Below, in pieces: positions 1 to 39,027 of a DNA stretch of 61,905 nucleotides (positions are counted from its first letter, which is position 1; the number at the start of each line of letters is the position of its first letter). Source of the DNA: Histomonas meleagridis 2922-C6/04-290x (Eukaryota > Protista > Parabasalia); NCBI GenBank assembly GCA_020184695.1, contig JAANOX010000197.1:1-61905 (forward strand), in the 5' to 3' direction. The position numbers were made by a program, and so were the translations under genes. The notes beneath the pieces were generated by a model. That model searched no databases and was not told the origin of the DNA. It saw nothing but the letters and a program-made list of their open reading frames with translations.

Positions 1-1
1 A

Positions 2-271
2 GTTGATAAATATGTCATCGCTGAGGAAAATGAATTAGTAAAATTAATTCAACTATTATGTTATACGGAAGAAGTAGGATTACTTAAAGCAGATCAGAAA
101 GCAGGCTGCTGCAGAAACAGTTCGTATGATTATGTTTCGAAAATTTATGTAAAAAAAGATGGAAACACTTATAATTTGAAGTATTCATACGCTGATGTAG
201 TAGAGTATTTAACAGAACGTAAAATTAGTTCGAAGTTTGTTAAGTCTTCAGGAAAAATAAGCTATAAATAA
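2..271 (+). CDS. 3' end of an uncharacterised element ORF (truncated by window edge)
   Basis: Frame 2 is open from base 2 (VDKYVIAEENELVKLIQLLCY...SSGKISYK) to TAA at 269-271; not in the ORF track. Confidence 0.65.
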   Translation, partial: VDKYVIAEENELVKLIQLLCYTEEVGLLKADQKAGCCRNSSYDYVSKIYVKKDGNTYNLKYSYADVVEYLTERKISSKFVKSSGKISYK

Positions 272-302
272 GTTAAAATTTATATTTTTCTATCTATATA
301 AG

Positions 303-854
303 ATGCCAGTAATTCTTTCAATCGATATTGGAGTAAAGAATCTTGCTTATGCTATAATCACTTATCCAGCTGTTACTTTTGATGTTATTGATATATCAAA
401 ACCAAATAATGCAGTTGATAGATGCAGGTTGGTTCAAAGATTGATTGGTAACATTATTAGAAAGAATCATGTTTCTGATGTAGTTATTGAAAAACAATTT
501 CCACAAAATACTGTTGCTATGGAATTAATGTATAGCATTATTACTCTTGCTTTAAATTTTACATCTCAAATCTATTTGTTTGATACAAAAGGAAAATTTA
601 CATATCTTGATTTAGAATATGATACGAAAAATATAGCTCATAAAAAATTAAGCGTAAATATTGCTAGGAACTTTTTAAAGTTTGTCGAAGGAGATCATTT
701 TGATTCATGGAACTCATTTCAAATGCTATATAATATCGAAAAATATAAGAAACAAGATGATATAGCAGATGCTATAAATCAGGGAATGGTTTATGGTTTA
801 AAAAATAAACTTATACATATTACTAAGAAGGAATATAAAGAAATGATTTTTTAA
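303..854 (+). CDS. Poxvirus A22-like RuvC Holliday-junction resolvase
   Basis: ILSIDIGVKNLAY (first Asp), VVIEKQ (Glu) and KKQDDIADA (Asp pair): the A22/Ydc2-type RuvC catalytic pattern in a 183-aa protein. Confidence 0.8.
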   Translation: MPVILSIDIGVKNLAYAIITYPAVTFDVIDISKPNNAVDRCRLVQRLIGNIIRKNHVSDVVIEKQFPQNTVAMELMYSIITLALNFTSQIYLFDTKGKFTYLDLEYDTKNIAHKKLSVNIARNFLKFVEGDHFDSWNSFQMLYNIEKYKKQDDIADAINQGMVYGLKNKLIHITKKEYKEMIF

Positions 855-880
855 AAACTAAGCTATTTTTTTTTAATATA

Positions 881-900
881 TTTTTTTAACGAATAATAAA
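881..900 (+). promoter_or_regulatory. Element-specific upstream motif, class 1 (TTTTT-ACGA-N-TAAG-like)
   Basis: tttttttaacgaataataaa directly before ATG 903; related copies precede ATGs at 5412, 9961 and 10531. Confidence 0.5.
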
Positions 901-902
901 GG

Positions 903-3149
903 ATGCCGAAAAGATATAGTACAGAAGAAATTAGAGACTTGTTCGAACGTTATGGTCACACACTACCGGAGAATTTTGTTTATAGAAATAATACTACACA
1001 TATTAATGTTACTGACGAACAAACAGGAAGAAGATAAAGATCTACATTAATACAGTTGAGATATCGAATAGATCACGGCAGAAGTGAATATGATTTTCCG
1101 CAATATATGAATATGGCAATTGATAACGAAGAACCGAAGTATAAAACATCATTTGAGAGATTTAGAGATAAGCAAGATGATTATTTCAAAAATGAGACTC
1201 ATGAATTCCAGCAAGAAGTTTTTCAGAACACTCAAAAAATGATTAGATTTATGAAGCAAAAAGATTTTACAATGAATTTTGACGGAAATGTCGATTCCTT
1301 CTTATACTCACTAATGCTTGCACTAAAAGAAATAGGTCCTCGAATCAATAAAGATATCAGAATGACAATCATTGATGAAAACGGCAAAATACAATACGCT
1401 CATGCTAACAGAAATACTGTTGACTTTCTCCAATCATTATTTGAAACAGGAAGAGAGATTAGTGATTATAACAAAGTTGCTTTAGACTCATATCTCAACA
1501 TTAGATCAATTCATTTTGAATTTAGAGATCTCAAAAAAGGAAAAAGAATTAATCCCGGATTCTTTCCGTATATTAATAAAACAAATATTGATCTAACAAA
1601 ATTCGGAATATTTAATTCGGTAAATAATGAAAAAATTAATGATTCATGCTTGATCCAAGCATTTGAGGCGAGTAAATTATTTTCAGAAAATGATATAAAC
1701 ATGTTAAGAAGATCATTTATTACAACAAGAACTGTTTCTCGCAGTGAGTTAAAGAAGATATCAGATCTGTTAAAAATTAATGTGTACTGTAAGATTGGTA
1801 GCATACACTGTACATTCGGCGAACAGTACGATAAAAAGATAAAATTAATAATTATTGATGACCACTATATGCTGTATGATAATGTTAATGTTAATGAGTT
1901 TTATTTATAGAATTATGAAAGGATTAATAAAGAACCAAGATTTAAGAACCATCAGCGGAAGATGATGCTATTAAAATATGATGATGAGAGATATTCGTTC
2001 AGTAAGAAAGGTATAAGCATTAAAAAATCAATACAGATCATGAAAGAGGAAAATTTATTGGTTCCAATAGATCAAAAGACATTTAACAAGTTATGTTGGA
2101 GTTATGAGCGGAAGAGTGAAAAATATAATAGTTTCCGAAAGATTGTTATTCCTGATAAAAAAGAGTTACCGTCATTTGTTAAGAAAGTAAATCAAACTAA
2201 GTCATTTTTTGGATATACTCCTGAAGAGAATGAAGTGCATGAACGTTTGCAAGAAGTGCAGGATTTAGTTGATTCGTTAGGTGTTAAAATTAATGTTGCC
2301 AGGTATTATAAATTTGCTGATCTAATGCAAAAGATCATGTATGAATACGGATGTTTTGATAATGTTTATGAACTATCAGGAGATATAGCAGAAAAGATTC
2401 GAAGTAAATTAGCATTTCCTCGTACTATATGGAGCAAAATACATTTAAAGAAGAAGTTATACTATATAGATATTAATGGTGCTTATATGTCAAGTATGAC
2501 AAATATTCCGACAGGAATACCTGACGACGATGGAAACTTTAGCGGAGAGAATACAAAAATAAAAGAACTTATCGAATTATTATATCAGAAAAGATCAGAA
2601 GCAAAGGCTAACGGTAACGACAAACTAGCAATGACAATTAAGTTTTTGATGAACAGTTGTTGGGGATTTTCAATAAAGAAACCCAGTAATATTAAGCATA
2701 AGCGAACGAATGATGTAAATAATTATGCCGAAACATTTGCACCTTATGTATTGAAATATACTTATAATGAAGATGGTATATCAGGATTTGTCGATACAGT
2801 AAACGCTTATGTCGAACATTACTATTATCCACAATTTGCAAGAAATGTTCTAAAAAACTTTAATGATAAAATGAATGAGTTAAAGAAAATGGTTAATGTT
2901 TATTACTCAGAAGTTGATTCTGCGTTAGTGTCGGAGGAAAACTTTTTATTATAAAAAGACAAAGGCTTTATTGGAAATGAACTTGGAAAATTCAAAGTTG
3001 AACACATATTTACAGAAGTATATTTCAAATCTGCTGATTGTTGGATTGGCAAACATGCTGACGGAACATATTATTATCATCTGACGCCAAAACTTAAACA
3101 ATACTGTCAGAATAAGGCTGATCCAATTAAAGCACTGATGTTAATTTGA
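903..3149 (+). pseudogene. Family-B (protein-primed-type) DNA polymerase with N-terminal vOTU-like domain; three in-frame stops
   Basis: Track ORFs 1056-1910 and 1962-2954 and the flanking sequence are one frame from ATG 903 to TGA 3147-3149, interrupted by TAA 1035, TAG 1908 and TAA 2952. Motif A YYIDINGAY, motif B KFLMNSCWG, motif C YYSEVDS and downstream ELGKFKVE. NDSCLIQAF...DDHYML is an OTU-like Cys/His pair. Confidence 0.85.
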
Positions 3150-3167
3150 AATTTTTATTTTTATTAA

Positions 3168-3386
3168 ATGAATTATATTTCACTCAATATTGCAAGAACA
3201 ATATTTAATGAAATTGGTCTCGATACTGATAAATTATATGTGGTAAGAAATGTTGTACATGAAAAATTACAAACAAATCCCTTATTTACAACTGAAATAT
3301 ATGACCTCAATATAATTAAATTGTCTGATATGCTTTCTGATTTTATTAATGATTGTATCGAAGAAATATTATGTCGAATAGTATAA
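3168..3386 (+). CDS. Small hypothetical element protein (72 aa)
   Basis: ORF preceded by tttttatttttattaaATG (class-2 motif). Confidence 0.55.
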   Translation: MNYISLNIARTIFNEIGLDTDKLYVVRNVVHEKLQTNPLFTTEIYDLNIIKLSDMLSDFINDCIEEILCRIV

Positions 3387-3404
3387 GGAAGTGTAATTTT
3401 TGGG

Positions 3405-3550
3405 ATTAATGACAGGACTATTTAACAAGACGGTCTTTTCGGAAATTATGGAACTAAAGTCTTTTTATACGAGGAAGAATTAGCAATTGAGGTTTTGCTG
3501 AAATCAATGATTTTTGGGTCATTTTTATGTGATTCACACGTTATATTAAA
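3405..3550 (+). repeat. Degenerate copy of the element non-coding module
   Basis: attaatgacaggacta...ctttttatacgaggaagaattagcaattgaggttttgctg aligns with 4575-4670; the right inverted arm is missing. Confidence 0.75.
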
Positions 3551-3658
3551 AGGTATGGCAACATGACTTCCGACCAGCTATTTTTACTCATTTTTGAAGG
3601 TTCAAAAAATAATGCTAATCTTAAAAAAATAATTTTTTTTTATTCTACTAAAAGAGAC

Positions 3659-4552
3659 ATGGAATCACTCAAACTTGAAACTATTGAGCTTATTGAAAAC
3701 TACAAAAGCGAAATCATACGTTTGCAAAATGAAATTAATAATACAAGTTTAAAAGATTTTATTAATGCAGACGAAGAATTATTTTATATACGCTCACGTA
3801 TGCATAATATAGAACAAATGGCGGATTTAATCCAAGAAAATAAGAAATATTTAAATGAAATTGAGGAGATGTTAAGGAATCCACCGAAGATTGAGGAGAA
3901 GAAAAAAGAATAAAGAATTATTAAAACTGAAGAAGAACAAATTGATGAACTATTCACATTACGTGTTAGTGAGCCGAGAAAGCTCTTCATCGAATCAGTA
4001 GTCGAAGGTGTTAATGAAGATCATAAAAAGACTATTAAATGTGTTGTAAATGAATATTCAAGTGGCTTTAATAAGGCATTAAAAGAATATAGTGCATTTG
4101 TTAGAAAAAATATTTTTAACGACAGGAGCTTAAACATTATAACACGTATGATTAATAAGTCTTTTAACTTTTTCGATCAATCAATTAATTAAACAGTATA
4201 TAAATCAGCAATGATAGCAGATCCACCGGAAGATGATACATCAGAAGCTGCTAAAGTTTGTGCTAGAAAGGTTATGAAGCAATTTAATGAAATTGTCGAC
4301 ATTAACGATATTATTAATAATAAAACTAAATCACTCAAAGAAGATGGATTTAAGTTAGTAAAAGCTGTAGAATGGATCGATACGATAGATAAAGACATTT
4401 TATATGATGTTAATGATCTTGTGGAATCTTATAATGATTTTTACAATACTGTTATTAATTCTAAATCATTCGGTAAACTCATGAAAGGTAAATTTATTAC
4501 TAAAAGAGCAACTCGAAAAGGTAAGAAATATACTTTTTATCAAAAGATTTAG
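3659..4552 (+). pseudogene. ~297-aa coiled-coil protein with basic, winged-helix-like C-terminus; two in-frame TAA stops
   Basis: Track ORFs 3563-3913 and 4211-4552 are in the same frame and the gap is open (RIIKTEEEQIDELF...FFDQSIN). Stops at 3911 and 4190; likely ATG 3659 follows a T-rich motif. Confidence 0.7.
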
Positions 4553-4571
4553 ATGAATGATACATTATATT

Positions 4572-4975
4572 TGGAATTAATGACAGGACTATATGACAGG
4601 ACAGTCTACCTGGAATTGATGAAACCAAACTCTTTTTACACGAGGAAGGATTAGCAATTGAGGTTTTGCTGTTTTCGATGATTTTCACGTCAAAATTTAA
4701 GGTATTACTGCGAAAAGGTATGTTTTGATGTCAAACCTAGTTAAAATTACGTGAAAATGTATAGAAAAGGTATGTTTTGATGTCAAACCTAGTTAAAATG
4801 ATAGTAATTACTACAAAAACCCATGAAAATCACTATTTTTCATAACTTTTGCTATTTCCAAAATTTCTACTTTCTACAACTACTTACTTTTTATTTATCC
4901 AGGTAGACTGTCCTGTCATATAGTCCTATATATAATAATAAAAATAATTTTGATTCGACATTCCCGCCAAGTGAG
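4572..4975. repeat. Element non-coding module with perfect 30-bp inverted arms and two 36-bp direct repeats
   Basis: 4585-4614 (aggactatatgacaggacagtctacctgga) is the exact reverse complement of 4898-4927. gaaaaggtatgttttgatgtcaaacctagttaaaat occurs at 4712-4747 and 4764-4799. The module is homologous to 11131-11545. Confidence 0.9.
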
Positions 4976-5320
4976 TTACTCGAATCTATAATCATGATAT
5001 TTAATAACCTTACCGGAATCATTACGAAAAGTACTGTAAAAAGTATTATAAACAACTTTTGTATATTTGTCGCACATCTTTCTTTTGCTATTATTCGACA
5101 CACATATAATAACATCAACAGGAAAAGCAATTTCAAATGTAGAGAATGAAACATATTCAATTTTTACATAATGAACATAGTTGTCAAACGTATATGTTTC
5201 GTTTTTGTCAAATACAAATGTTATCTCATTCGTTTTACCGTAAATATTAATAATATTTTCAATAATAATTGCTGCTGAACTTTTTTCTACTTCTTCCGCC
5301 TCATACTCATAACCAAACAT
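4976..5320 (-). CDS. Hypothetical element protein (114 aa)
   Basis: ATG ORF with TAAATG start context, convergent on the module. Confidence 0.55.
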   Translation of the reverse strand: MFGYEYEAEEVEKSSAAIIIENIINIYGKTNEITFVFDKNETYTFDNYVHYVKIEYVSFSTFEIAFPVDVIICVSNNSKRKMCDKYTKVVYNTFYSTFRNDSGKVIKYHDYRFE

Positions 5321-5393
5321 TTAAAAAGATTTTGGAATTAATAACTCCATTTATATAAAATAAAAAAATAAATCTAATTCAAAAATAATTTTA

Positions 5394-5411
5394 TTTTTTT
5401 ACGATTAAGAA
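5394..5411 (+). promoter_or_regulatory. Class-1 upstream motif
   Basis: tttttttacgattaagaa immediately before ATG 5412. Confidence 0.55.
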
Positions 5412-5615
5412 ATGATGGATAAAATTTTTGATAACATAGATGAAGAAATTATACGTGCAGTTCAACAATTAACAGAAAGATTTACGAATCAAATGTTAGA
5501 ATATATTTTATATAATGAATTACAAGAAGCGAAGCCAGAAGATATAGCAAAGAAGTACTTAAACATTAAGCCAATTAAGCGTAGACGCTGCAGAACAAAA
5601 AATAATTTATCATGA
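5412..5615 (+). CDS. Small protein with basic NLS-like C-terminus (67 aa)
   Basis: ORF after a class-1 motif; ends KPIKRRRCRTKNNLS. Confidence 0.6.
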   Translation: MMDKIFDNIDEEIIRAVQQLTERFTNQMLEYILYNELQEAKPEDIAKKYLNIKPIKRRRCRTKNNLS

Positions 5616-5677
5616 ACAAACAAACCAAACAACATTAGATGATGTTCTTCCGTATATAAATGAAGCGTTATAAATTC

Positions 5678-7198
5678 TTAATCACTAAATACAGCAATAA
5701 TGGTATCACTAATGATTCCAGTAACTCTTTCAACAATCATTTTATTTATTTTTCCCGTCAGTACTGTTTCATCATCTAATATTGAACCATCATATAGTAC
5801 AGTATCACCGATATTATATATTGATGAGTCAGTAACACTAAAATAATAATCACCGTGTGAAGCAAAATCTATTGTATCTTGATTAACGGAGACATCGCTC
5901 CTAATGTTACCACCAGTTTGAAATATTTCTCCTGCTGCATGTTTTGCAACACATATTCCGATAAATTCTTTATATGTTCCTGTTGATTTTACACTAGGAA
6001 TACAATCTGTTGCTGTTGTTTCCGTCACATAATTTTTATCTTTGAGTGAATAAACATTTCCGCTAATAAATACTGAAGAACCGATAGTATAATTGCTTAA
6101 ATCTTCTTCTATCGGCGCATTATGCACAATAGTTTTATTAATCTGACCTCCACCACTACTTGATATAATAGCTTTTCTGTATGTATCATCTGATATATGC
6201 CAAAATCCTAATTCATTTTCATATGATGCTATTCTCCAAGTATAAATACCTGGTGCTTCTGTTGAATTATTATGAAAAACGAAATCTAAAAATCTTCCTG
6301 TTTTTAATACAGAATTTTGATAAGGAACAATATCAGCAGGTTGATGAGTATGAGATGATGGAGTAAATGTTGATGGTTTATCAGTAATATCATTATAACT
6401 ATGAGTATGTGTATTTAAAGAAAAATTATTAACAGGTATATCATTAATAGAAATACAATTTATATTACCATCAATTCCATTGAAACTAATAACACCATCA
6501 TTATTATCAAGTTTACCGAAATACATAACATTGCCGGCAGTTCTTATTCTCCAAGAATAATCACTATTTAAATCATTATTATCATGAAAGTCAATATACT
6601 GTCCAACTTCCATTACACCATCTGATTTAATAGTCGCGATTGATGTAATATTTACTGTTGAATTAGAACCTCCTCCAATACTGTTTGAAATATAATATCG
6701 GTTAATGGAATTTGCGACAAGACTACCATTAATAGCTAAATCATTATTAATTATTTCATGTGTATGATTTTTTAATGCAAAATCATCTGTTGAATAACCA
6801 TTAATGGTATCAATAATTAAATTTGTAATTGAAACATTATTACTATCTTCATTGATTTTTACGAATTGTGAATATAAGTCTAAAACTCTATTTATATTAC
6901 CGAACATTTCAATTATATATGCATTTTTCATTATATTTTCTCCAGTAAGTATATCATCAACTTTAATATTATTATTGATATACTTTAGATTTTTTATGCT
7001 ATTATCTAACGGTGATATTACAACATGATTTCTTCCGTAAGTGAAAACAATACTTTTATCCACACTGTTTATCTGTAGTGTGCAAATACCATTTGATAAA
7101 GTGTCGGATGTTTTGCTGTGATTACTGTAAACAACACTATTTTTATTCATCAACGCGCGCACTATATTTTCTATTTTTTCAAACTGTGAATTTGACAT
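5678..7198 (-). CDS. Virion fibre / phage tail-fibre-like protein with putative C-terminal chaperone domain
   Basis: Likely start MSNSQF at 7198. GVMEVGQYIDFH..DYSWRI module with a second copy (GRFLDF..IYTWRI). HTH repeats (NHTHEI; THTHSYNDITDKPSTFTPSSHTH). C-terminal EFIGIC...ASHGDYYF...IGDTVLYDG. Confidence 0.65.
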   Translation of the reverse strand: MSNSQFEKIENIVRALMNKNSVVYSNHSKTSDTLSNGICTLQINSVDKSIVFTYGRNHVVISPLDNSIKNLKYINNNIKVDDILTGENIMKNAYIIEMFGNINRVLDLYSQFVKINEDSNNVSITNLIIDTINGYSTDDFALKNHTHEIINNDLAINGSLVANSINRYYISNSIGGGSNSTVNITSIATIKSDGVMEVGQYIDFHDNNDLNSDYSWRIRTAGNVMYFGKLDNNDGVISFNGIDGNINCISINDIPVNNFSLNTHTHSYNDITDKPSTFTPSSHTHQPADIVPYQNSVLKTGRFLDFVFHNNSTEAPGIYTWRIASYENELGFWHISDDTYRKAIISSSGGGQINKTIVHNAPIEEDLSNYTIGSSVFISGNVYSLKDKNYVTETTATDCIPSVKSTGTYKEFIGICVAKHAAGEIFQTGGNIRSDVSVNQDTIDFASHGDYYFSVTDSSIYNIGDTVLYDGSILDDETVLTGKINKMIVERVTGIISDTIIAVFSD

Positions 7199-7214
7199 TT
7201 TAATAAAATAAAAA
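7193..7214. promoter_or_regulatory. Class-2 motif / 15-bp bidirectional intergenic spacer
   Basis: tgacattttaataaaataaaaa is identical at 7193 and 8201; on the minus strand it reads TTTTTATTTTATTAAAATG(TCA). Confidence 0.55.
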
Positions 7215-8026
7215 TGTTTAAAACTGAAGATCAATTTAGCACGATCGCATCACAACTTCCGGTCGAAGAAAATTATACAAATCTCGACATTGATCAGTAT
7301 GAAACACTTAATGAACAGAACGGATACACATTCCGTTATCCTCAGCGTTGGTTAGAAAGTCTTTCACAGAATAAAGCGATTGGTGTTAGGAGGCTAGACA
7401 TTATTCCGACAACTCATGTTATATCGTTACGTTTTAATGTAGTGAAGCCTGATAGTGTTTCAGGAACGTCGCCATCACCGCGAACAATTTCATTTCAAGT
7501 AATGGCTCAAAACACTTTATTGGAGATAATGACAGGAATATGTAATGACTTTAATTCATTATTTGCTAGCTATAGATTACATTATACTTATGATGACAGC
7601 GGAATGTTATCAATATACTGTGATTATGTCGGAAGTGATGATACAGAGTCAATTCCAGCTAATTTTTCAATATTTGACGCTTCATCAACTAATATAAATA
7701 CTAAAGAATTTTTAAGATTTCTTAACCAAGATGAAACTGATATAAATTATCTCTCAAATCCTTCAAACACAAGAGTATTTCGTAATGTTTGTAACTCAGA
7801 ATATATTGAGTTCCATGCATCATTTAGTGATTCAAAAAGGAGATTTATCGGAATTAAAGGAGACTTTTACGAAAAGCCTACAGTATTATATAATGCTCCT
7901 ACTGACGGAAGCACTTTTAACATTCGTTTTACCACTAACGGCAAAAATAACATTTATCCCAAATATTGTCGATTTATTATTCAATCAGTATTCTTATATA
8001 ATTATCGAAAGACTGTTGTTTTATGA
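7214..8026 (+). CDS. Putative minor capsid (penton-like single jelly-roll) protein, paralogue 1
   Basis: 270 aa, beta-rich, with an insertion. N-terminal YTFRYP..AIGVRRL and C-terminal FNIRFTTNG..FIIQSVF resemble polinton penton architecture; located next to the ATPase and fibre. Confidence 0.5.
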   Translation: MFKTEDQFSTIASQLPVEENYTNLDIDQYETLNEQNGYTFRYPQRWLESLSQNKAIGVRRLDIIPTTHVISLRFNVVKPDSVSGTSPSPRTISFQVMAQNTLLEIMTGICNDFNSLFASYRLHYTYDDSGMLSIYCDYVGSDDTESIPANFSIFDASSTNINTKEFLRFLNQDETDINYLSNPSNTRVFRNVCNSEYIEFHASFSDSKRRFIGIKGDFYEKPTVLYNAPTDGSTFNIRFTTNGKNNIYPKYCRFIIQSVFLYNYRKTVVL

Positions 8027-8206
8027 GTACATAGTGTTTTTAATTTCTTCCGACATTTCTTCGCTCGAAGAGCTCAAGCCAACTCGTTGGCGTTCTACTT
8101 CTTCTTCAACACTAAATATTTCATAAGCTTTTAATAAAGTTCTTACAACAGAGTTTGAAACATATATTGTTCCAATGACACATAACCAAACACCAACAAA
8201 TGACAT
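8021..8206 (-). CDS. Small protein with N-terminal hydrophobic segment (61 aa), possible virion membrane protein
   Basis: MSFVGVWLCVIGTIYV; start context identical to that of the fibre gene. Confidence 0.5.
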   Translation of the reverse strand: MSFVGVWLCVIGTIYVSNSVVRTLLKAYEIFSVEEEVERQRVGLSSSSEEMSEEIKNTMYS

Positions 8207-8237
8207 TTTAATAAAATAAAAATTTTATTTTTACAAA

Positions 8238-8999
8238 ATGTATAATGCTGTAATTGATTACACAATATCTTCTTATGATGCTACACATTATAACAGAATG
8301 AACATTAATCTTCCATCACCTCCGACAAGAATTGCCAAAATGATTGTTATGTCATTAACGACAAAATGTTCGATAGTAGTTATTGAAAAAGATGATTTTA
8401 TACAGATTAACGGGAAAAAATATTATTTCACTACTGACTACACCGATCTTAATTCACAAACATTCATACTTCTGTTAAACTCACTCATCCAAGAGTCGGG
8501 TGTAACTTCTGAAGTCGATGAGGCGGGAAGAATTATCTTTAGTTCTGACACTGCTTTTACTATTGACTCTGCATCATATAATATTATTCAGATATCCGGA
8601 CTATATTCACAAGTACTTCCTATCCCTGCATCTTATAATGAAAAATATGAAATAACTGCTGAAAGCGTCGGAAACACTTTATCAACACCTGTTTTATATC
8701 TATTGTCAAATGTTGGGAAAAGTTCATACAGAAACTTAAATGAAACCATTAACATATCAAAAATTGTTTTAAGAATTAATAACTCCTTCTCTGCAAACTT
8801 TCCGATAATAGTGTCGAACGCTGATTTTGAGATTGAATTAAACAGTAATGACCTATCACACTTACAGTTAACATTAGTTGATGCTAATCTTCATGAGGTT
8901 CATTTATTGAATCCATTATATATTACAATAAGTGTTCAAGGTTTGCCGGATGAAGATTTATTCGCTATTGAACAAAACGAAAGCAATCGAACTAAGTGA
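8238..8999 (+). CDS. Putative minor capsid (penton) protein, paralogue 2
   Basis: C-terminal LSHLQLTLVDANLHEVHLLNPLYITISVQ fits the polinton/PLV penton C-terminal pattern; N-terminal strand NINLPSP..KMIVMSL. Confidence 0.65.
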   Translation: MYNAVIDYTISSYDATHYNRMNINLPSPPTRIAKMIVMSLTTKCSIVVIEKDDFIQINGKKYYFTTDYTDLNSQTFILLLNSLIQESGVTSEVDEAGRIIFSSDTAFTIDSASYNIIQISGLYSQVLPIPASYNEKYEITAESVGNTLSTPVLYLLSNVGKSSYRNLNETINISKIVLRINNSFSANFPIIVSNADFEIELNSNDLSHLQLTLVDANLHEVHLLNPLYITISVQGLPDEDLFAIEQNESNRTK

Positions 9000-9013
9000 G
9001 AACAACAACAAAA

Positions 9014-9919
9014 TTATTTTTGTTTGACACTGTTTGAAAGTGTAATAGTTACTCGTCGAGCCTTAATGTAAATGTTAAATCTAGCATGAGGATCTGTGAT
9101 TTTAGAATATTCATTCCATAATTTATCCGCATCAAATATTGATGCAGGTGATTCTTCCATGAGATCATAAAAATCATATTTTGAAATGCCGGGAAATATC
9201 ACTATATCTGACAATGTTCTTTTGATATCTTTTGAAATACTCTTTGTTGTTTGAACACATATGGTAACATTGATGTTAAAATGTCTGAGCTTCTTTAACA
9301 TTCTAGATAAATCTGTTTCTTTACTTCTTAATAACGGATGTGATGCAAAGTCATCAAGAATGAGCCAACAACGGTGATAATAAGTTCTCCACTGGTATTT
9401 TGCTAACTTCTCGGCAACATATTTTAATCTCTTCTTTTGATTATATAAATTATGTTTTGTAAAAAGTCTTTCAATCTCTTCATTCGTTTTCTTAAAATTA
9501 CTGTTGATATATTTAATGATAGAATTATATTTTAATATTCGTCTCATATATTTATTTAACCAGTCGAGTAACTGAGTATCTTTTATAGCGACGAGCTTAC
9601 TCTTGTTAATTACTTCTTTATAAGTGTTGACGGTTTCATCAAATTTATTACTAGTGCTGCAAATAACTATTAGCTCAAAAAAAGGCTCTCGAAATAATAC
9701 TTCTTGCTGAGCAGCAAGTTTTAAATAAGTGTAACTCTTTCCGCTTGACATTGATGCGATAAATGCACTGATCCCATTCTGAGCAAATGGAAATCTATCA
9801 TGAATGAGCTTAATTAATGCATTGTTTAATACTTCTTCATTAATTTTACTAATTTTATAAAATTGTTCTTCTATATCATCAAATTTTTTATCTACTTCGG
9901 ATAATTTATTTTTTCGCAT
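9014..9919 (-). CDS. A32-like (FtsK-HerA) genome-packaging ATPase
   Basis: Walker A ASMSSGKS, Walker B LILDDF and the A32-type LRHFNINVTICVQ motif. Confidence 0.92.
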   Translation of the reverse strand: MRKNKLSEVDKKFDDIEEQFYKISKINEEVLNNALIKLIHDRFPFAQNGISAFIASMSSGKSYTYLKLAAQQEVLFREPFFELIVICSTSNKFDETVNTYKEVINKSKLVAIKDTQLLDWLNKYMRRILKYNSIIKYINSNFKKTNEEIERLFTKHNLYNQKKRLKYVAEKLAKYQWRTYYHRCWLILDDFASHPLLRSKETDLSRMLKKLRHFNINVTICVQTTKSISKDIKRTLSDIVIFPGISKYDFYDLMEESPASIFDADKLWNEYSKITDPHARFNIYIKARRVTITLSNSVKQK

Positions 9920-9941
9920 TATTTTAATATTATAAAAATTA

Positions 9942-9960
9942 TTTTTTTACGAATAAGTAA
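9942..9960 (+). promoter_or_regulatory. Class-1 upstream motif
   Basis: tttttttacgaataagtaa before ATG 9961. Confidence 0.55.
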
Positions 9961-10443
9961 ATGGAAGAATTCCAAAACTATTTAATCAGTGAGTACAAAG
10001 TTCAAGACTATGCTGCTGTTGAATTTAAGTATAACCACTCTGAAAACATTAAATTGGACAAGAAATCGGAGAAATATGTTGTTCAACACGTTATTCTTGT
10101 CGGAATAAAGTTTTATGACGGAACATTAAAGCTTTTACACTCTGCTAACATTAAATTTGTTAATAATGTTCTCGCAAAAGTGTGTGAAAAGAAGTTAGTA
10201 AATATAGCTCCTGCAGAATCTAATAATAAATTTATGGCAGCAAGATCTGATATTATTAAAATAATAACGGATGAATTGATTGCTAAATTGAATGAAGTAG
10301 GAAGCAAGCTTAAATCTGTAGAAAGTTATTCTGGAAAAGCAAACAGTAATATTTCAATTCCTGACGAGTTTAAAGGAGAATTAATTAAAATTTCTGATTC
10401 CACAAACATTAACACAACTGATAAACAACAATTTGAAATGTAA
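9961..10443 (+). CDS. Hypothetical element protein (160 aa)
   Basis: Clean ATG ORF with a class-1 motif. Confidence 0.7.
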   Translation: MEEFQNYLISEYKVQDYAAVEFKYNHSENIKLDKKSEKYVVQHVILVGIKFYDGTLKLLHSANIKFVNNVLAKVCEKKLVNIAPAESNNKFMAARSDIIKIITDELIAKLNEVGSKLKSVESYSGKANSNISIPDEFKGELIKISDSTNINTTDKQQFEM

Positions 10444-10508
10444 CATTCAACTTTTTATTAATTTTTGATGGATCAAAAAAATAACTCTAATTTTAAAAAA
10501 ATATTTTA

Positions 10509-10525
10509 TTTTTACGACTAAGAAA
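10509..10525 (+). promoter_or_regulatory. Class-1 upstream motif
   Basis: tttttacgactaagaaa before ATG 10531. Confidence 0.55.
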
Positions 10526-10530
10526 TAGAG

Positions 10531-11106
10531 ATGGAATCAAACTGGATCGAATGTGTCGTCGATAATGATTATGAAATTAATACATCATTTCCGCATCAAA
10601 TCCGTAGGAAAAATAATAAAAGAATTATTAGTGAACATGTTGATAACACAATAGGAGGTTATGTTATATGTCATTTAAACAACAAGAAGTATCAAAAACA
10701 CCGCATTATTGCTTTGCAGTTCATTGAAAATGATGATCCAAAAACTAAAAAATATGTGGATCACATCAATCATATCAGAACAGATAACAGAATTGAAAAT
10801 CTTCGATGGGTATCGTCGAATAAAAATAATTTAAATAAATCATCGCATTTTGGCGTAGAATATGAATATGTTGATGATATACCTAATGATTCAATTGAAA
10901 TATTACAATACGGCAAACATAACTTTGTCGATTACTATTATGTCGAAGAAGAAGATAAATTTTATTTCTGGAACCGAATTAAATTTAGGAAACTTAATAT
11001 CTGCTTCAATAAATGTGGTTATGCATTTGTTTATGCAAATGATATTGATGGAAAAAATGTTAGAATATATTATTCAAAGTTCAAAAAAGAATATGGGTTA
11101 GTGTAA
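10531..11106 (+). CDS. HNH homing-type endonuclease (HNH_3-like)
   Basis: KHRIIALQFI...VDHINHIRTDNRIENLRWVS..NN. Confidence 0.9.
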   Translation: MESNWIECVVDNDYEINTSFPHQIRRKNNKRIISEHVDNTIGGYVICHLNNKKYQKHRIIALQFIENDDPKTKKYVDHINHIRTDNRIENLRWVSSNKNNLNKSSHFGVEYEYVDDIPNDSIEILQYGKHNFVDYYYVEEEDKFYFWNRIKFRKLNICFNKCGYAFVYANDIDGKNVRIYYSKFKKEYGLV

Positions 11107-11130
11107 GCGTTGGATCAAAAATTATTTTTA

Positions 11131-11871
11131 GAATTAATGTTATCATAAAGGACACTATGACAGGACAGTCTTCCCGGAATTGATGAAACCAAACTCTTTT
11201 TACACGAGGAGGAAATAGAAATTACAAAATCCCTGAAATCAGTGATTTTCACGTCATTTTTCGAGGTATTACTGCGAAAATGGGTGTTTAGATGTCAAAC
11301 CTATTAAAAATGATAGGTATTCATGTTAAAATGGCGTGTTTTGACGTCAAACCTATTAAAAATGATAGGTAATGCTTCTAAAACCACCTAAAATCAGTGA
11401 TTTTCACCACTTTTGCTATTTCCAGAATTTCTACTTTCTACAACTACTTACTTTTTTATTTATCCAGGTAGACTGTCCTATTATAATGTCCTATATATAA
11501 AAATAAAAAAAATTCTAGTTTCGACATCTTCCGATAGTGATTAACAGTAAATAATAACAAATAAATCTAGTACAGACATCTTCCGATAGTGGGTAAACAG
11601 TAAATATTAGTGTAGACATCTTCCGTAAATGATTAGCAGAAATATAGTGTCAAACCTTAAATTTACCCCGTTTTTAGTGATTTTCGATAGTTTTGCTATT
11701 TCCAGAATTTCTACTTTCTACAACTATTTACTTTTTATTTATCCAGGTAGACTGTCCTATTATAATGTCCTATATATAAAAATAAAAAAAATTCTAGTTT
11801 CGACATCTCCGTATAGTGATTAACAGTAAATAATAACAAATAAATCTAGTGCAGACATCTTCCGATAGTGG
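11131..11871. repeat. Terminal repeat region of the element
   Basis: Module homologous to 4572-4975 (imperfect 30-bp inverted arms, 11149-11178 vs 11463-11492, 25/30). A ~181-bp direct duplication (11411-11592 and 11691-11871). Five copies of a gacatcttccgatagtg-like motif (11523, 11575, 11615, 11802, 11854). Confidence 0.9.
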
Positions 11872-13108
11872 TATCATATGGTAGCGACGAAGGAGCGAAC
11901 CAACACACCGAGGCGCAAGGCGCCGAAGAGCAAGCCGTAGGCTAAAGCGCAGGGTGCTACCCAAGCTAGCCAGGTTTTGCATGTGTGTGTGTTGGATGAA
12001 ACAAAACAATTTCGAAACATATGAAAATTCTTCTCAATGCAATGCTTGAGAACACAATAGCCCTGATACAATAAGTGAATCTTGGTCAATTTACCAAATT
12101 TGACTTCAATAAACATTTTTGATTTTATTTTCATCCATGAATGTGTTGAAAACAATATGCTGTGAAAGAGGGTCTTTTTATTAATAATAAATTTTGGCTT
12201 TTTCAAGTTTTTATATATCTGATATCTGATAATATAATTTTGAAAAAAAAATTATTCTAAATTTGTCAATAAAACATATTTTCGATTTGCTTTGGGAGCG
12301 CATGGAGACTGGCCACTAATTATATATGTAACGAGAGATATATGAGAAAATTATACATTTTTATATTGTTTTTGCCGCTAACCATTAATAGTATTTACTA
12401 ACAAACGATTTATATTAACATTATTTTTTTTTTTTTTTTTTGATCTATTTTTACAAATTCTTATTTACAAATCCATTACATTGTTAATTTTGCTAAACAT
12501 TCGATTTAAATAATATATATTGGAAATAAATAATATATAAAACACAAAAAATTTGTTTATAAACCAATTTTATAGGAAGACAAGTAAAGCCACTTTTTGA
12601 GCTTTGCTCAAAAAGTGTCTCAGCTATTTCACTAATATTTTTTATAAAAATTATTATTGAGAAAATAAATTGATGTAATTATAATATTAATTAATGGTAT
12701 TATTTACATGTCTTTTTTTATTAACTTCGAGAAAACAATCTTTAATAAGATAATATTCTTAATTTAAAAAACAATAATATATCAACTACAGATTACGCAC
12801 CAAATCAAAAATATCGAAAACGAATTTATAGAAATGATTGAAGTTAATATCTGATAAATATTTTAGATCAATATCCTATAAGCAGGAAAAAAAGGTTCGA
12901 ATTTATGAATAATCAATTTTACTAATTTTTTTTTTCCTATTCAAATTCTGAATATAATATTTCGATATAAAATTATATAGCTATTTTCATAATAAATGTA
13001 TTTATAAATTTTGAAAAATATTGTTTATTAAAGAAGATATTTTTGTTTTATTTTGAGGTTCAATCACTTTTTCTTTGAAATGATTAAACCCATTTTATAA
13101 TAAACATA

Positions 13109-13644: not shown

Positions 13645-14839
13645 ATAAACGGTCTCCCCGATAATTTATTTTTTTTCAAGAAATCTCGGTGGTTGAATGT
13701 AATACTTACGATTAAAAATAAACAATATCTCTGCCTAATGATGTACTTATTATTTATTGTAATATTAAGATTTTTGATAAAATATGACAGCTAATTAAAT
13801 TTTATATTGATATAAGATGAAAAAATCGTTATATTACATTTTTAGAATTTTTCCTTATATGGTCCTGAAAAAAAAGAAATTGAAGAAAATAAAGAAAAAA
13901 AAGAAAATTAAGAAAAATGATGAATAAATCATCATGAAAGCAAAATTCAATTTTGAGATTAATATGCGAAATTCCATTTAATAATGTGATAATATATTTT
14001 ATGAAACAAATTTAGAATCCATAAAAAATAAGAGAGAAAAAACAAAAAACGGAATATGCATTAAAAAGAACATCAAAAAAATTGAATTCAAATCGATCAA
14101 ATTGCATTCAATATAAAAAAATAAATTTTCAAATGAATAGAGAGGGATTAATATAAGTGATAAAACAAAATAAATTACAAATATATTATCGCATAATAAA
14201 TCAAAATCAAATGATAGAGAGATATTGAAAATTTGAAGATAAAAATTTCAAATGTAATTTGCGAACACATTTCAATAGATATTATTAATATTATACTCTG
14301 TTTATATAATTTATACATCCATGTAATTTTTTATTAATAATAAATTGGATTTAATCTATATAATTACGAAATAAATATGTTTCAAAACCTATTTTCTTGT
14401 TTTGACTTTTAGGCTTTTTTCAATGAGTTTTAATCGTATTTTTAGACTTTAAACAACATTATCTCAATAAGTAAAGATAATCACAAAATATAAACCCAAG
14501 TATAAAACTGAGATACAACATTAATTATAATTTTGCATTATTGAAAAATTCGAATTTTTAGGTTTGATATGAACAGAACTTAATGATTAACCAATAAAAG
14601 TTAAAAACAGCTAAATATTTATTTATATTTTAGAAATTGTAATAATGTAATAGAACGGTTTTTTCATCTCATATTAATATAAAATTTAATTAGCTGTCAT
14701 ATTTTATCAAAAATCTTAATATTACAATAAATAATAAGTACATCATTAGGCAGAAATATTGTTCATTTTTAATCGTAAGTATTACATTCAACCACCGAGA
14801 TTTCTTGGAAAAAAATAAATTTCCAGGGAGGTCGTTTAT
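13645..14839. repeat. Fold-back inverted repeat (~185-bp arms, ~820-bp spacer); possible non-autonomous TIR element
   Basis: 13645-13830 is the reverse complement of 14654-14839 with few mismatches (core aaatctcggtggttgaatgtaatacttacgattaaaaat...). No TSD found. Confidence 0.85.
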
Positions 14840-15534: not shown

Positions 15535-16874
15535 ATGAGAATGATTTCTTTTATGTTTTATATTTTTACAATTCAAGCATTTGAAATATTTGATAATAAA
15601 ACAAAAACACTTACATTAAAAACACAAGGAGATTTTGAAAGTGCAAAAAAATATGAAAAAGAAACTTTATTTTTAATTATAGAGGGTGAAATTACGAAAA
15701 TACCAAATTCTGCATTTAAAGATTGGAGTAATCTAGCATCTGTTAAAATTGGTAACTCAGTAACTTTAATTGGCAATCAAGCATTTGAGAATTGCAAAAA
15801 TTTATCAAATGTTACTTTTGGTCAAAATGTTACCACAATTTCAGATTCTGGATTTTATCAATGTACTAAATTATCCATAGTTATTTTTAATGAAAATTTA
15901 ATTGAAATCAGTTGGAAATCATTTTATCAATGTTCATCACTAAAAAGTATTAATTTATCAAATTCTGTAACTACTATTGGCTGGTATGCATTTTCTCATT
16001 GTGAGAAACTTTCACGAATTATTTTGGGAGAAAATTTAACTATAATTGAAAATTATGCATTTAATACTTGCAAAAATTTATCAGAGGTTGTTTTTAATGA
16101 AAAATTGACCCAAATTGGGAGAAATTCATTTTTTATTGTATTTCGCTTGAAAGAATTAAATTACCAAATTCACTTTCTTCAATTAAAAACCTTTGTTTCT
16201 TGCAATGCACTAAATTATCAAATGTAATTTTTGGAAATAAATTAACGGAAATTGGTTATAGAGCATTTGGCTATTGTTTTTCTCTTAAAAATATCGAGTT
16301 ACCAAGTTCATTAACTATTATCAGTTCAACTGTTTTTGATAGTTGTTATAATTTATCAGTTGTTATTATAGGCGAAAATGTGGTTTCAATTGAGAAATAT
16401 GCATTTTACAATTGTAAATCTCTAACTTGTCTTTATTATTATGGCCACTCACAACCTAAAGTTATTGATAATGCATTTGATAATTGTCCTGTCAAATGTG
16501 TGATGACATTGGATTCATATAATTCAACAAAATTTGGTAAATTTAATGTATCAAAAGGAACAACAATCGAAAATTGTAATCCATGGCCAACACATACATT
16601 AACACAATCAAACTCTTTTACACAATCAAACTCATTTACACAATCAAATTCATTAACACAATCGAATGTGTTTACAACAGCAAATACATCTTCTGTAACA
16701 TATACAAATTCTAATATATATTCTAATTCAATCACGAATTCTAATATATATTCTAATTCAATCACGAATTCAAATATTACATCAAATTCATTTCCATTAA
16801 GATCTGGTTCAAAAACTGTTACACTTGCTTTTGGTGCAAGTATTATTTCTTTATTATTCTTAATTTTATTTTAA
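15535..16874 (+). pseudogene. BspA-like (TpLRR/LRR_5) surface protein with a 1-nt frameshift
   Basis: Repeated IGxxAFxxCxxLxxIxI units in both 15535-16227 and 16200-16874. The frame changes at a T6 run (16129-16134). S/T-rich stalk (TQSNSF repeats) and hydrophobic C-terminus. Confidence 0.85.
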
Positions 16875-17120
16875 TAATCATTCATAATATTTTTAGATAT
16901 CAAAGAAGAAAAAGACAACAACAGTAAATAATATCATCAAATTGATGTAATGAAACCTTTAAAATAAAATGAAGAGTTCTCTAAAACATATTTAAAGGGA
17001 AGTATTACTTATATCTTTTAAAAAATTATTAATATAAGCTTTGTGTGGGTTAAGAAAAAAAAATCAATGATATAAATTTTATATACCCTGTTTCGGTTAA
17101 GAAACATTTTTTCATAATTT

Positions 17121-17786
17121 TCAGCAGTTATTCTTTTTATTAATAAAAAATCGGCAAATTAGCCTTCGTAAATCATCCGCTGTGTACACAGCCACATTTA
17201 TATATGACAATAGTTCACCGGTATTTCCTTTTAGAAACAATTTAAACATATCGATATGGTCATATGTTAATGGTGTTGATGCATAATATTCGAGAACAAG
17301 TTTTAAGCCGAATAGTTCGGCAATTTTAATGTTGTCACCAGCAGCTATGCTCTTAGCAATTCTAATCTTTTGATATGATTTTAAATGACAATTTTGGTAA
17401 ATATATTGGAAAATGGAATATGATCCATGTCATGCGAATAAGCTCAAAAATTCTTCTTTCCTTTTAGTAAAATGTTTTTTGAATTCAGAAAGGTTATTTA
17501 AAATAAATGCAAAACGAAGAGATTCATCATTTATATTATATTTATTGATATTTTTTTGAAAAAGCTTTTCTCAAGAGTTTGGCTAAACATGTAACCATAA
17601 ATGTATTTTAGAAACAAGTTTACGATAGAGTTCAATATAAAAATTTTGATTGAAAATCCTGCGCTTTACAAGAATAAGAATATGTGAACACCCATAGTCC
17701 AAATAATTTTCGTCATGCTTTTTAAATAGTCCTTTAAATAATTTCATTGCTGAGTTAAAATCACCAACTGTTATATTATCAATCAA
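17121..17786 (-). pseudogene. Degenerate DUF3447/ankyrin-associated-like gene
   Basis: One frame with three in-frame stops; segments FA*HGSYSIFQYIY and SIAAGDNIKI resemble AAFFGSxxCFKYL / AIAGGNxEII (compare 50215-51316). Confidence 0.45.
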
Positions 17787-18218
17787 GAACTTTCTGTGAA
17801 ATATTTCGCTGAAAGTAAATTGGGCCTTTCATCAGATGATTATTGGGTTTCTGGAAGTCAATCAATTTTCCATATTAATCTAAGACTAAAAGGTGGTAAA
17901 GGAGGATTCGGTAGAGCTATGAGACAAGAAGGTGAAAGGAGATCAAGAAGGCTTCCACCAAATAAAGATTCATGTAGAACATTAAGTGGAAGGCGAATTG
18001 GATTTTTATAAGCAAAGAGAAGAGTTGTTGAACTCAAAGCAAAGATAAAGGAAATGGAAGAAATCGAGCAACGTGAACAAAAGATAAGTGAATCAATCCG
18101 CGAAGCTGTTGAATATTCACAGCAAAGAATGCAACAAATGAATGAAGAAAGAAATATTGTTTCAAATCCACTTATTGGCCTGAGCGAATTTTCAATGTTA
18201 CTTGAAGGAAATGAATAA
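17754..18218 (+). pseudogene. SDE2: SDE2-like (ubiquitin-fold, LxLxGGKGG) gene with in-frame TAA and no clear ATG
   Basis: NLRLKGGKGGFG...KDSCRTLSGRR is the SDE2 signature; the frame continues past TAA 18009-18011 as a coiled coil to TAA 18216. Confidence 0.75.
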
Positions 18219-18539
18219 AAATCGTGTTTTAAATGTTTTTTAATATGGTTTTCACCTTCCATCTGATCAAATGATTCTTTTGGAGATAACTTTTGGTAAA
18301 TTTAAGAATTAGAAAACACTTCTTGAACATTTCATGCATGAATAATTCATTTATAATAATAAAAATGGGTTATAATACCTCTGTAAGTAATATTTATTAC
18401 ATTGTTTTAAAACAAAAAACTAAAAATTTATAGCAGATTATTTTTATTGCTTCAAAACTTAAGTTTTCTTTGATATTATGATATTCATATATGAATATTC
18501 CTAAAGGTTTTTGGTATTATTACCATTTTTTTTCATAAT

Positions 18540-18809
18540 CTTGAAGTAATTTAACTATATTTTCATGAAAATTTAAATTTTTAATTAATTATAATTTTAA
18601 TAATTAATTATTTTTAGATGCTATCATAAATGCTGTATTAAATAATTTAAATAATTTCCAAATATTATTTTGAAATATAAAATTATTTATATAAATTTTA
18701 AATAAAACAAAAAAAAAATATCTTTAGCATTAATATCAATTCCTTCTTGTTCAAGAAGGAACTTATCTATTTCTGTATTAACTTTTGAAGATGCTTTCAT
18801 AATTGCTGT
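18540..18809 (-). pseudogene. Ankyrin repeat remnants separated by an 83-nt AT-rich spacer
   Basis: TAIMKASSKVNTEIDKFLLEQEGIDINAKD, then spacer 18637-18719, then TAFMIASKN. Confidence 0.7.
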
Positions 18810-36746: not shown

Positions 36747-36825
36747 AATTTAAAGTAATGTTTAAAAATATTCGATGTTCAAAAAGATACCCTGGTGTCG
36801 CTCCAATTCGTCGTATTCAAATTTT

Positions 36826-38836: not shown

Positions 38837-39027
38837 CTTTCAGATGTCGGTTCAATGCCGTTTATTAATTTTTTGACTAGCATTTAAAATTTGAAAACGG
38901 CGAATTGGAGCGACACCAGGGTACTCTTAAATGACAATTTGTTTTGCTTTAATGTTAACCGCCTTTTGTGATTTTTGAATATGCTTATAGAATTATTTGT
39001 GTGTATTTCGATTTGTCAAAAGGTTAA

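Follow-up and report, generated by a model that had tools for sequence, protein, structure and literature searches.

Mavericks of Trichomonas vaginalis are often nested or concatenated, and the genes of their class 3 encode a phage-tail-repeat protein, HNH, primase, A32 ATPase and integrase (PMC12289875 Suppl. Tables 3-5). Metamonad Mavericks are still ungrouped for want of related genomes (10.64898/2026.06.19.733378). With respect to replication, TPR1 and TPR2 count as hallmarks of protein-primed polymerases, and all modelled examples retain both; in phi29, TPR1 mediates the interaction with the terminal protein (PMC11161782). According to the same source, absence of the first Asp of motif C does not preclude activity in mavirus and pipolins. 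Furthermore, a preprint on egoviruses reports homologues of their core genes, including the resolvase, in parabasalid genomes, and a move of KilA into polintons (10.1101/2024.03.23.586382).

Here, we analysed a window of 61,905 nucleotides (the whole stretch examined, from contig JAANOX010000197.1), in which a Maverick/Polinton-type virus has integrated, likely into a parabasalid genome, its right arm occupying positions 1 to ~11,990. With moderate confidence, we read it as the decaying right arm of such a virus, likely a parabasalid one, from a family whose polymerase lacks the exonuclease and TPR1 and is predicted to replicate DNA without proofreading. The features of the element are given below; their recurrence was counted over 70 related loci that share the gene set.

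1..271, plus strand: o1, 3' part; 48-51% identity in 17/70 loci
303..854, plus strand: A22/RuvC-type Holliday-junction resolvase, between o1 and PolB; PF04848 E 9.8e-14
903..3149, plus strand: compact protein-primed-type PolB with N-terminal domains, vOTU and palm/fingers/TPR2; exonuclease and TPR1 absent
3168..3386, plus strand: 72-aa ORF; no relative found among the 70 related loci
3396..3514, no strand: repeat module m1, partial; 82% to m2; begins 10 nt past a stop codon
3659..4552, plus strand: frame with two stops; C-terminus homologous to a 394-413-aa gene of L035/L046
4564..4961, no strand: repeat module m2, flanked by two convergent stop codons
4976..5320, minus strand: 114-aa ORF; no relative found among the 70 related loci
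5412..5615, plus strand: 67-aa ORF, preceded by the shared start motif
5678..7198, minus strand: fibre-like protein with phage-tail repeat, 506 aa; PHROG tail matches at residues 256-292
7214..8026, plus strand: pen1, likely minor capsid/penton-like; Atlas feature matches 0.90-0.93, one named penton; 13/70 loci
8238..8999, plus strand: pen2, penton (single jelly-roll) by a low-confidence model; 31/70 loci
9014..9919, minus strand: A32-type packaging ATPase; PF04665 E 0.0011 (below cut-off); 527 homologues
9961..10443, plus strand: 160-aa conserved protein, divergent from the ATPase; 59/70 loci
10531..11106, plus strand: HNH endonuclease; PF13392 E 1.7e-9; PHROG matches
11121..11871, no strand: repeat module m3 with a tandem partial copy; m3 = 11121-11527, 80% to m2
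11872..11992, no strand: GC-rich tail with a (TG)n run at its end; likely right terminus

A first-pass annotation of this DNA had proposed an endogenous polinton-type virus with an ATPase, two penton-like genes, an HNH gene and an A22-type resolvase. Gene content and intact relatives confirmed the virus, and the Pfam matches listed above confirmed the HNH gene and the resolvase. The ATPase call was equally upheld by its 527 homologues, as PF04665 is carried by most of the 120 listed. Of the two penton-like genes, both of which stood, pen2 was assigned through a model of low confidence (pLDDT 49.7), which most closely resembled penton or minor capsid proteins; it aligns with the mavirus penton 6g41 (Z 7.8, rmsd 9.6, 207 aligned) and also matches adomavirus LO5. 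Pen1, present in 1-2 copies in relatives, is likely a minor capsid/penton-like protein, an assignment made solely from its Atlas feature matches, and profile comparison found pen1 and pen2 unlike (probability 0.7%). The claim of a phage-like fibre held in so far as a likeness to tail repeats is present, although it is mostly confined to one ~35-aa repeat (residues 256-292). The N- and C-terminal parts of the fibre-like protein, which matched 10/70 loci, are 54-61% identical in most relatives, where its length is 901-1234 aa vs 506 aa in the window. For the conserved protein at 9961, a TBP-like factor was considered but found no support, as a PDB sequence search gave no match below E 0.3.

The intact relatives come from human gut metagenomes and have the ATPase (68%), pentons, fibre and polymerase in common with the window. 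Beyond these, they encode a capsid-like protein, an SF3 helicase and an rve integrase. The window begins inside o1, which in relatives encodes 185-194 aa at full length and has the capsid-like gene block on one side and PolB on the other. The capsid-like gene encodes 540-562 aa; its nearest Atlas clusters are mostly proteins of Parabasalia and Preaxostyla, with one Capsid_N cluster at 0.97, and its assignment was made from Atlas features only. PF00665 was found in 3/3 complete integrase ORFs, one of them above the cut-off, and the integrase ORFs of the L058 type were identified by motif alone. The D5/SF3-type primase-helicase is 920-929 aa. No Ulp1-like maturation protease was detected by Pfam among the window or relative ORFs scanned, and the published T. 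vaginalis Maverick gene list likewise contains none. An IMG/VR pattern search returned no relative of the ATPase or the capsid-like gene.

The first-pass view of a departure from the canonical Maverick plan was not supported, since the relatives encode both a capsid-like protein and an rve integrase. The gene set is also less atypical than proposed, as 55.1% and 24.0% are the figures for phage-tail-repeat and HNH in T. vaginalis class 3 (PMC12289875 Suppl. Table 5). The A32 ATPase, the capsid-related genes and the phage-tail-repeat protein are shared with class 3 of the T. vaginalis Mavericks and with the Metamonada MCP group (PMC10120064), and an optional HNH is also shared with T. vaginalis Mavericks, as are the integrase and primase/helicase of the window's family. 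That the element is an ordinary member of class 3 is nevertheless quite improbable. Such membership would fit the class-3 genes for HNH, primase, integrase, A32 ATPase and a phage-tail-repeat protein, as well as the DUF4108 and KilA-N of the related L035 type. These last two are, however, absent from the visible part of the element and from the L058 type, and neither KilA nor DUF4106/4107/4108 was found in the window. Furthermore, DUF4106, the major capsid family of class 3, was not found in the capsid-like proteins of L058 and L001 (0/2), and TvMav polymerases carry the name of PF03175, a model that most intact compact proteins do not match. The TvMav table also lists no A22, which the window has, and the polymerase of the window's family is reduced. 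The proposal of an undescribed lineage stood in part: by the markers that could be compared, the element belongs to none of the three described T. vaginalis Maverick classes, and its relatives follow an ordinary Maverick plan.

The copy in the window is a fossil in decay, of value mainly as a host-anchored family member. Among sequencing runs, four DNA runs from a single study contained 0.58-0.92 of the sequence words and may be its source; no RNA run was listed as containing it, and four other runs with small shares say nothing about habitat. We call it decaying because its polymerase frame contains three stops and its ATPase departs at 5/100 conserved columns (median 0 among the 120 homologues listed, 1/120 being equally high). 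Its Walker A motif has S at residue 58, where G is near-invariant elsewhere. In total, 5 stops interrupt two frames (903-3149, three; 3659-4552, two). The PolB frame comprises 748 codons in a single frame with stops at 1035, 1908 and 2952; in relatives it is open (777-837 aa), with stop codons in 0/56 of their polN/polC matches. The "mini-PolB" of 330 aa (1962-2954) in the first-pass annotation is accordingly a stop-broken fragment of this frame, although the intact family polymerase really is reduced, having lost exonuclease and TPR1. Recoding of the stops was ruled out, because relatives have differing residues at the three PolB stop sites and because TAA/TGA terminate other window genes at the gene ends of relatives. 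The right end of the element likely lies near the (TG)n run at 11982-11992, with a GC content of 0.57 at 11901-12000 that drops to 0.16-0.31 beyond; the window holds neither the left end nor a TSD, and a stem-loop at the terminus (11860-12000) was not significant (z -1.6).

The repeated cis-modules noted earlier are real: the copies at 3396-3514, 4564-4961, 11121-11527 and 11676-11871 are mutually 72-95% alike, while each of 20 composition-matched resamples gave 0-1 non-self matches. The last of them, the tandem partial copy, is 95% identical to 11396-11592, and m2 contains two 30-bp arms in perfect inverted repeat (4585-4614 / 4898-4927; fold z -5.7). At the DNA level, none of the modules was matched in the 70 related loci. 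No evidence was found for their description as origin-like; the module arm follows stop codons at 4 places, which makes a 3'-end signal as plausible as an origin. An identity as MITEs was unsupported as well, given a likeness extending beyond the inverted arms, no TSD and no copy in the window outside the element.

As direct repeats, m2 and m3 could also be the places where two element pieces were joined into a chimera, the replication arm being the older and the structural cassette the younger of the two. All 5/5 stops lie left of m2 (~1,390 codons) and 0 in the ~1,860 codons between m2 and m3 (post hoc p ~0.014), the orientation of the structural block with respect to PolB is reversed between the window and L058, and nesting or concatenation is frequent in T. 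vaginalis Mavericks. We nevertheless regard a chimera as unlikely: the right-block ATPase has decayed too, the same contigs hold the closest relatives of both blocks, and gene order varies among relatives regardless.

The new point of this study is the polymerase family. We aligned 70 polymerase sequences and counted motifs in those with 690 aa or more (36 rows), among which there are near-copies (L014/P0295; L046/P0300/P0301/P0302). The family has lost exonuclease and TPR1 and kept TPR2 and the catalytic residues. Its full-length members (n=36) are 698-858 aa long and lack ~170-200 aa where a canonical pPolB has the 3'-5' exonuclease (ExoI-III), with the ExoII pattern in 0/36 compact polymerases vs 20/20 proteins of at least 950 aa. 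Similarly, the distance from motif A to the fingers is 22-30 aa in the family vs 105-110 aa in five full-length pPolBs, with two intermediates of 57 and 92 aa, while the TPR2 interval is retained (50-56 aa vs 54-57 aa) and its beta-hairpin region is visible in the model. The vOTU C and H, motif A D, motif B K and motif C D are retained in 36/36 rows. Motif A is atypical (DxNGAY or DQAGAY in place of DxxSLYP), as is motif C, whose first Asp is missing, and the C-terminus is short. The structure model of an intact relative's polymerase (pLDDT 87.3, pTM 0.79) has phi29 polymerase as its top match (Z 17.2, rmsd 3.0, 265 aligned) and mavirus polymerase as its first match among viral models; residues 273-370 match OTU folds (Z 5-6). 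N-terminal of the vOTU, the model shows a confident alpha/beta domain, for which fold matches did not span residues 1-270; position and a weak alignment to longer pPolBs suggest that these residues form a terminal-protein-like region. By sequence, the compact polymerase had no match in PDB, and PF03175 matched none of 10/10 intact compact proteins, the family mostly failing this Pfam model.

Exonuclease loss as such is already known from mavirus, whose pPolB (PMC11161782) also resembles the family in its kept vOTU and absent first motif C Asp, and which likewise has a separate SF3 helicase and rve integrase. However, mavirus is described with TPR1 and TPR2, and the family polymerase has no TPR1. 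The loss is likely independent of that in mavirus because the sequence neighbours of the compact polymerase are exonuclease-bearing pPolBs of about 1,000-1,200 aa; the tree excludes mavirus. In this FastTree analysis, a single branch sets the compact sequences apart (34 rows, support 100), although group-specific gaps in the alignment can inflate apparent monophyly. The Tlr1-like fusions of pPolB with an SF1 helicase in PLVs and transpovirons (PMC11161782) have the same TP-like/vOTU/palm layout with the exonuclease absent, but they retain both TPR1 and TPR2 and are joined to the helicase, whereas the family polymerase stands alone. Neither TPR1 loss nor a description of this polymerase family was found in the literature searched, which covered few subscription papers and some sources in part.

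For intact members, we propose that the rve integrase would insert the genome and that the polymerase would be made as one polypeptide of N-terminal domains, vOTU and palm. The N-terminal terminal-protein-like region, still tethered, may prime at the genome ends, and TPR1 as a docking site would therefore be dispensable; the vOTU would then free this region. TPR2 could provide processive strand displacement, aided by the separately encoded SF3 helicase, and particles would be built from ATPase, capsid, pentons and fibre. Where present, the optional A22 resolvase would cut branched replication or recombination intermediates, e.g., between repeat modules. As judged from sequence, DNA copying by this family is predicted to be simplified and to proceed without proofreading.

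Alternatively, protein priming may have been abandoned, with the primase domain of the primase-helicase making primers and the TPR1-less polymerase only elongating. The loss of TPR1, the contact site of the terminal protein in phi29 (PMC11161782), would agree with this. So would the long N-terminal region of the 929-aa helicase and its PHROG "DNA primase" matches. We take this N-terminal region to bear AEP-like motifs. However, the PHROG matches are confined to the helicase part (residues 588-778), Pfam was blank for the N-terminal 272 aa tested, L053 combines a compact polymerase with a shorter helicase of 605 aa, and the vOTU dyad, kept in 36/36, fits continued terminal-protein release, so that we consider priming by the primase rather unlikely. 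It is very unlikely that the compact polymerase is dead or merely structural, with the primase-helicase or the host replicating the genome. The loss of exonuclease and TPR1, the short C-terminus, the atypical motifs and the absent PF03175 matches could be read in this way, but neither of the two catalytic Asp residues nor the motif B Lys varies among sequences of 25-57% identity, and mavirus and pipolins set a precedent for the missing Asp (PMC11161782).

In contrast to the polymerase, the A22 gene is no family trait but an accessory insertion. It was found in 0/70 related loci, and the gap from the o1 match to PolB is 662 nt in the window vs 47-54 nt in 17/17 relatives. The alignment shows the acidic residues D8, E63, D153 and D156, which by comparison with RuvC would be the catalytic acids. 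The likely donor of A22 is a large gut DNA virus: one relative (37%) has uracil-DNA glycosylase and dNMP kinase as its neighbours, and its contig carries no polinton gene. The six closest homologues (56-91%) lie on short contigs (644-2,531 nt), IMG/VR matches are distant (24-29% across near-full length), and phage records gave no match. The available part of the egovirus preprint reports resolvase exchange between egoviruses and Parabasalia and puts KilA alone inside polintons (10.1101/2024.03.23.586382), whereas the window has a resolvase of that type inside a polinton. As an atypical trait, the resolvase is weakened by the dinoflagellate Oxyrrhis marina PLV (PMC12721341), which was already reported with a Holliday-junction resolvase but differs in having a tyrosine recombinase and a pPolB that is complete with its exonuclease and joined to an SF1 helicase.

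Taken further, and tentatively, these elements may represent an undescribed, widespread gut-protist polinton-like clade, intact and near-identical in >100 protein clusters, human-gut contigs among them. Its minimal active polymerase, without proofreading and TPR1, would be primed by a tethered terminal protein or its own primase and be largely invisible to Pfam polymerase searches, and the resolvase of this lineage may stem from an egovirus-like giant virus. Such a naturally TPR1-less family and its graded intermediates make it possible to test which role TPR1 retains when terminal protein and polymerase form one chain. Because most of its members escape the Pfam model of such polymerases, the family may also account for some endogenous viruses reported without a polymerase (PMC10120064), and the intact gut contigs provide related genomes for grouping metamonad Mavericks.

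Two smaller observations concern the remaining sequence. The C-terminus of the 3659-4552 frame matches the repeat-flanked gene of L035/L046 by blastp (E 1e-8, 31% over 85 aa). Furthermore, the start-codon motif that had been ascribed to the element, TTTT[TA]ACGA-N5-22-ATG, a pattern defined post hoc, occurs 4 times in the whole window, and 4/4 occurrences precede element genes.

The 'mini-PolB' of the first-pass annotation is a fragment, one of the four pieces into which three stop codons split the polymerase frame 903-3149, but intact compact polymerases lacking the exonuclease and the protein-primed insertion TPR1 do exist. A search of 1.84 billion representatives returned 434 related proteins, and the best 150 of these fall into size classes of 700-810 aa, about 880 aa (a few) and 950-1,460 aa, the last matching mostly in the N-terminal half. 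In the alignment, long polymerases have a complete TPR1 along with ExoI, II and III motifs (PF03175 scored in 5/5), whereas both blocks are missing from the compact ones. Accordingly, the interval from the His of the OTU-type protease domain (vOTU) to the pre-motif-A helix measures 148-174 aa in compact versus 332-362 aa in long polymerases, and that from motif A to the fingers 22-30 versus 105-110 aa, with the TPR2 interval unchanged. Two intermediates are without the exonuclease, and their TPR1 interval is only partly shortened, to 57 and 92 aa. Four polymerases of ~860-880 aa (P0357, P0367, P0371 and P0381) group between the long and compact forms; in the two examined, the exonuclease is missing and TPR1 is partly retained.

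Motif counts were made on the 36 compact rows of at least 690 aa, the 34 shorter of the 70 rows being dropped. The vOTU Cys and His and the Asp, Lys and Asp of motifs A, B and C are retained in all 36; the ExoII pattern, present in 20/20 long proteins, occurs in none of them. The exonuclease call is based on ExoII and the gap, as the ExoI patterns differed slightly between two scripts. PF03175 at E 0.01 missed 10/10 intact compact proteins and hit the window's fragment at E 2e-7. The polymerase of metagenome locus L014 was modelled confidently (pLDDT 87.3, pTM 0.79), with fold matches covering residues from 273 onward: residues 273-370 resemble OTU proteases (Z 5-6, many rows), and for residues ~470-803 the best match is phi29 polymerase (Z 17.2, rmsd 3.0 over 265 aligned), with the next family at Z 13.1. 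The top viral model for this protein is mavirus polymerase (E 3.5e-12). Furthermore, 116 of the best 120 of its 243 homologues are 90-100% identical over residues 300-803, and this type is therefore common and intact. In a FastTree of 58 rows (midpoint root, gap-rich alignment), the compact proteins form one side of a branch, adjoining the intermediates, and the window's frame (X at stops) is nested among them.

The available text of PMC11161782 describes a TP-vOTU layout, helicase gain accompanying exonuclease loss, and both TPR1 and TPR2 in all modelled polymerases; the compact family differs from these in missing TPR1 while keeping the TPR2 interval. A long TPR2, the driver of strand displacement, is described for the B2 polymerases of T. 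vaginalis, Giardia and Entamoeba (PMC3511435, available sections). The accessible portions of 10.64898/2026.10.13.758929 and PMC13215967 contain nothing on an exonuclease-less, TPR1-less family, which appears to be undescribed in the searches run.

ORF calling and family matches bore out the remaining genes proposed for 1-12 kb: those for the A22 resolvase, A32-type ATPase and HNH, a fibre carrying a phage-tail repeat of ~35 aa, and two candidate pentons. The first, pen1, is so assigned from Atlas features; the second, pen2, has a low-confidence model (pLDDT 49.7) whose best fold matches are adomavirus LO5, mavirus, MELD and giant-virus minor capsid proteins (33 at E ≤0.001), with Z 7.8 and rmsd 9.6 over 207 aligned against the mavirus penton. 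The window's copy is decaying. Besides the polymerase, frame 3659-4552 is broken by two stops, and 5 of 100 conserved columns are altered in the ATPase, Walker A among them (median 0 across 120 homologues). Two of 33 are altered in A22, which has D8, E63, D153 and D156, the four acidic residues of RuvC-type catalysis. Stop codons are absent from every relative match.

These relatives are 70 loci from a metagenome scan with the ATPase alignment, many labelled human gut and many short. The numbers of loci matched by each of the window's genes are: ATPase 70, o9961 (ORF 9961-10443) 59, pen2 31, pen1 13 and fibre 10; PolB C-part 30, middle 26 and start 20; o1, the conserved gene before PolB, 17; HNH 2, ORF4211 (within frame 3659-4552) 2 and A22 0. 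Pieced together from overlapping contigs, the gene order of the commonest type is integrase, three ORFs, a 540-562-aa capsid-like gene, a small ORF, o1, PolB, a 209-aa ORF, o9961, ATPase, pen2, one or two pen1, fibre and a 920-929-aa primase-helicase; complete integrase ORFs of three other loci scored for rve. Because of this order, the window most likely starts just downstream of a capsid gene. On the features testable in the window, the element behaves as a Maverick/Polinton, with integrase, capsid and termini visible in relatives at most. Polintons have dinucleotide termini.

Among these loci, L026 contains a ~900-bp imperfect palindrome past its helicase gene (9435-10328; central hairpin, AC/TG runs), which may be element ends joined together or a misassembly. 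L009 1-9700 joins a family ATPase to bacterial genes (FtsH-like and GTPase as read from sequence) and is probably a chimeric assembly. The ATPase, polymerase and other genes of L046, L043 and L035 carry short GC-rich in-frame insertions that vary between near-identical copies, and L063 1-1506 encodes a more distant relative's fibre with a terminal Peptidase_S74 chaperone domain (E 2e-15).

A22 lies between o1 and PolB, an interval that is a 47-54-nt gap in 17/17 relatives. It has 24 homologues in total, six of which (56-91% identical, on contigs too short for context) group with it (support 94). GTDB contigs gave four matches, including L092 at 37%, where A22 has genes for uracil-DNA glycosylase and dNMP kinase as neighbours, an arrangement like that of a large DNA virus, with no polinton genes on the contig. 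A22 was probably captured from an egovirus-like donor. An exchange of resolvases between egoviruses and Parabasalia has been reported (10.1101/2024.03.23.586382). L092 (14.2 kb, within a bacterial MAG) also has a PX-domain gene and appears to be a wrongly binned fragment of a large eukaryotic DNA virus.

The gene set had been called atypical; most of its oddities have precedents, but the exonuclease-less, TPR1-less polymerase stands apart. In the available text of PMC12289875, the T. vaginalis Maverick class TvMav3 shares phage-tail-repeat and HNH genes with the element, but A22 is not listed for it; on the markers examined, the element does not class with TvMav3. OmPLV, like the element, carries a resolvase, and resolvases are mentioned for some polintons (PMC12721341, parts available). 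The accessible part of PMC10120064 identifies DUF4106 as the T. vaginalis capsid, has a Metamonada group, and describes many elements as being without detectable polymerase; metamonad elements are ungrouped in that of 10.64898/2026.06.19.733378.

The repeat modules proved real. Within the window the start-codon motif is element-specific (full matches 4/4, core heptamer 6/8). A ~50-bp module arm follows the stops of four genes, and module m2 (4564-4961) takes up the whole interval separating two convergent genes, with a perfect 30-bp inverted pair inside. Module DNA had no match in the relatives; L035, L043 and L046 have their own repeats around the homologue of the 3659-4552 gene. Candidate roles of the modules are a 3'-end signal, a terminal-repeat remnant and a recombination site. 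In L043 (2202-3487) and L046 (5349-6634), two near-identical elements, the homologue is a 413-aa gene flanked by inverted repeats, and its orientation differs between the two (98.8% identical); it is a possible invertible cassette, but the flip could be an assembly artefact.

Past ~12 kb, long unbroken eukaryotic ORFs were read as Rab, Myb and ubiquitin-conjugating genes, accompanied by a BspA-type LRR protein (PF13306). These, and the position that the Atlas gives the capsid-like protein of the family, point to a parabasalid. The flank also contains a BspA-like LRR gene cluster (15535-24664) with a long near-identical block common to two genes, and a decayed DDE transposon (36786-38925; Tc1/mariner/pogo-like as read) with short terminal inverted repeats. 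The transposon carries a 167-codon piece of the Maverick family's integrase (36762-37265, minus strand), 67% identical to that of L028. Finally, a MITE-like inverted repeat pair (206 nt, 93% complementary, 783 nt spacing) occupies 13645-14839.
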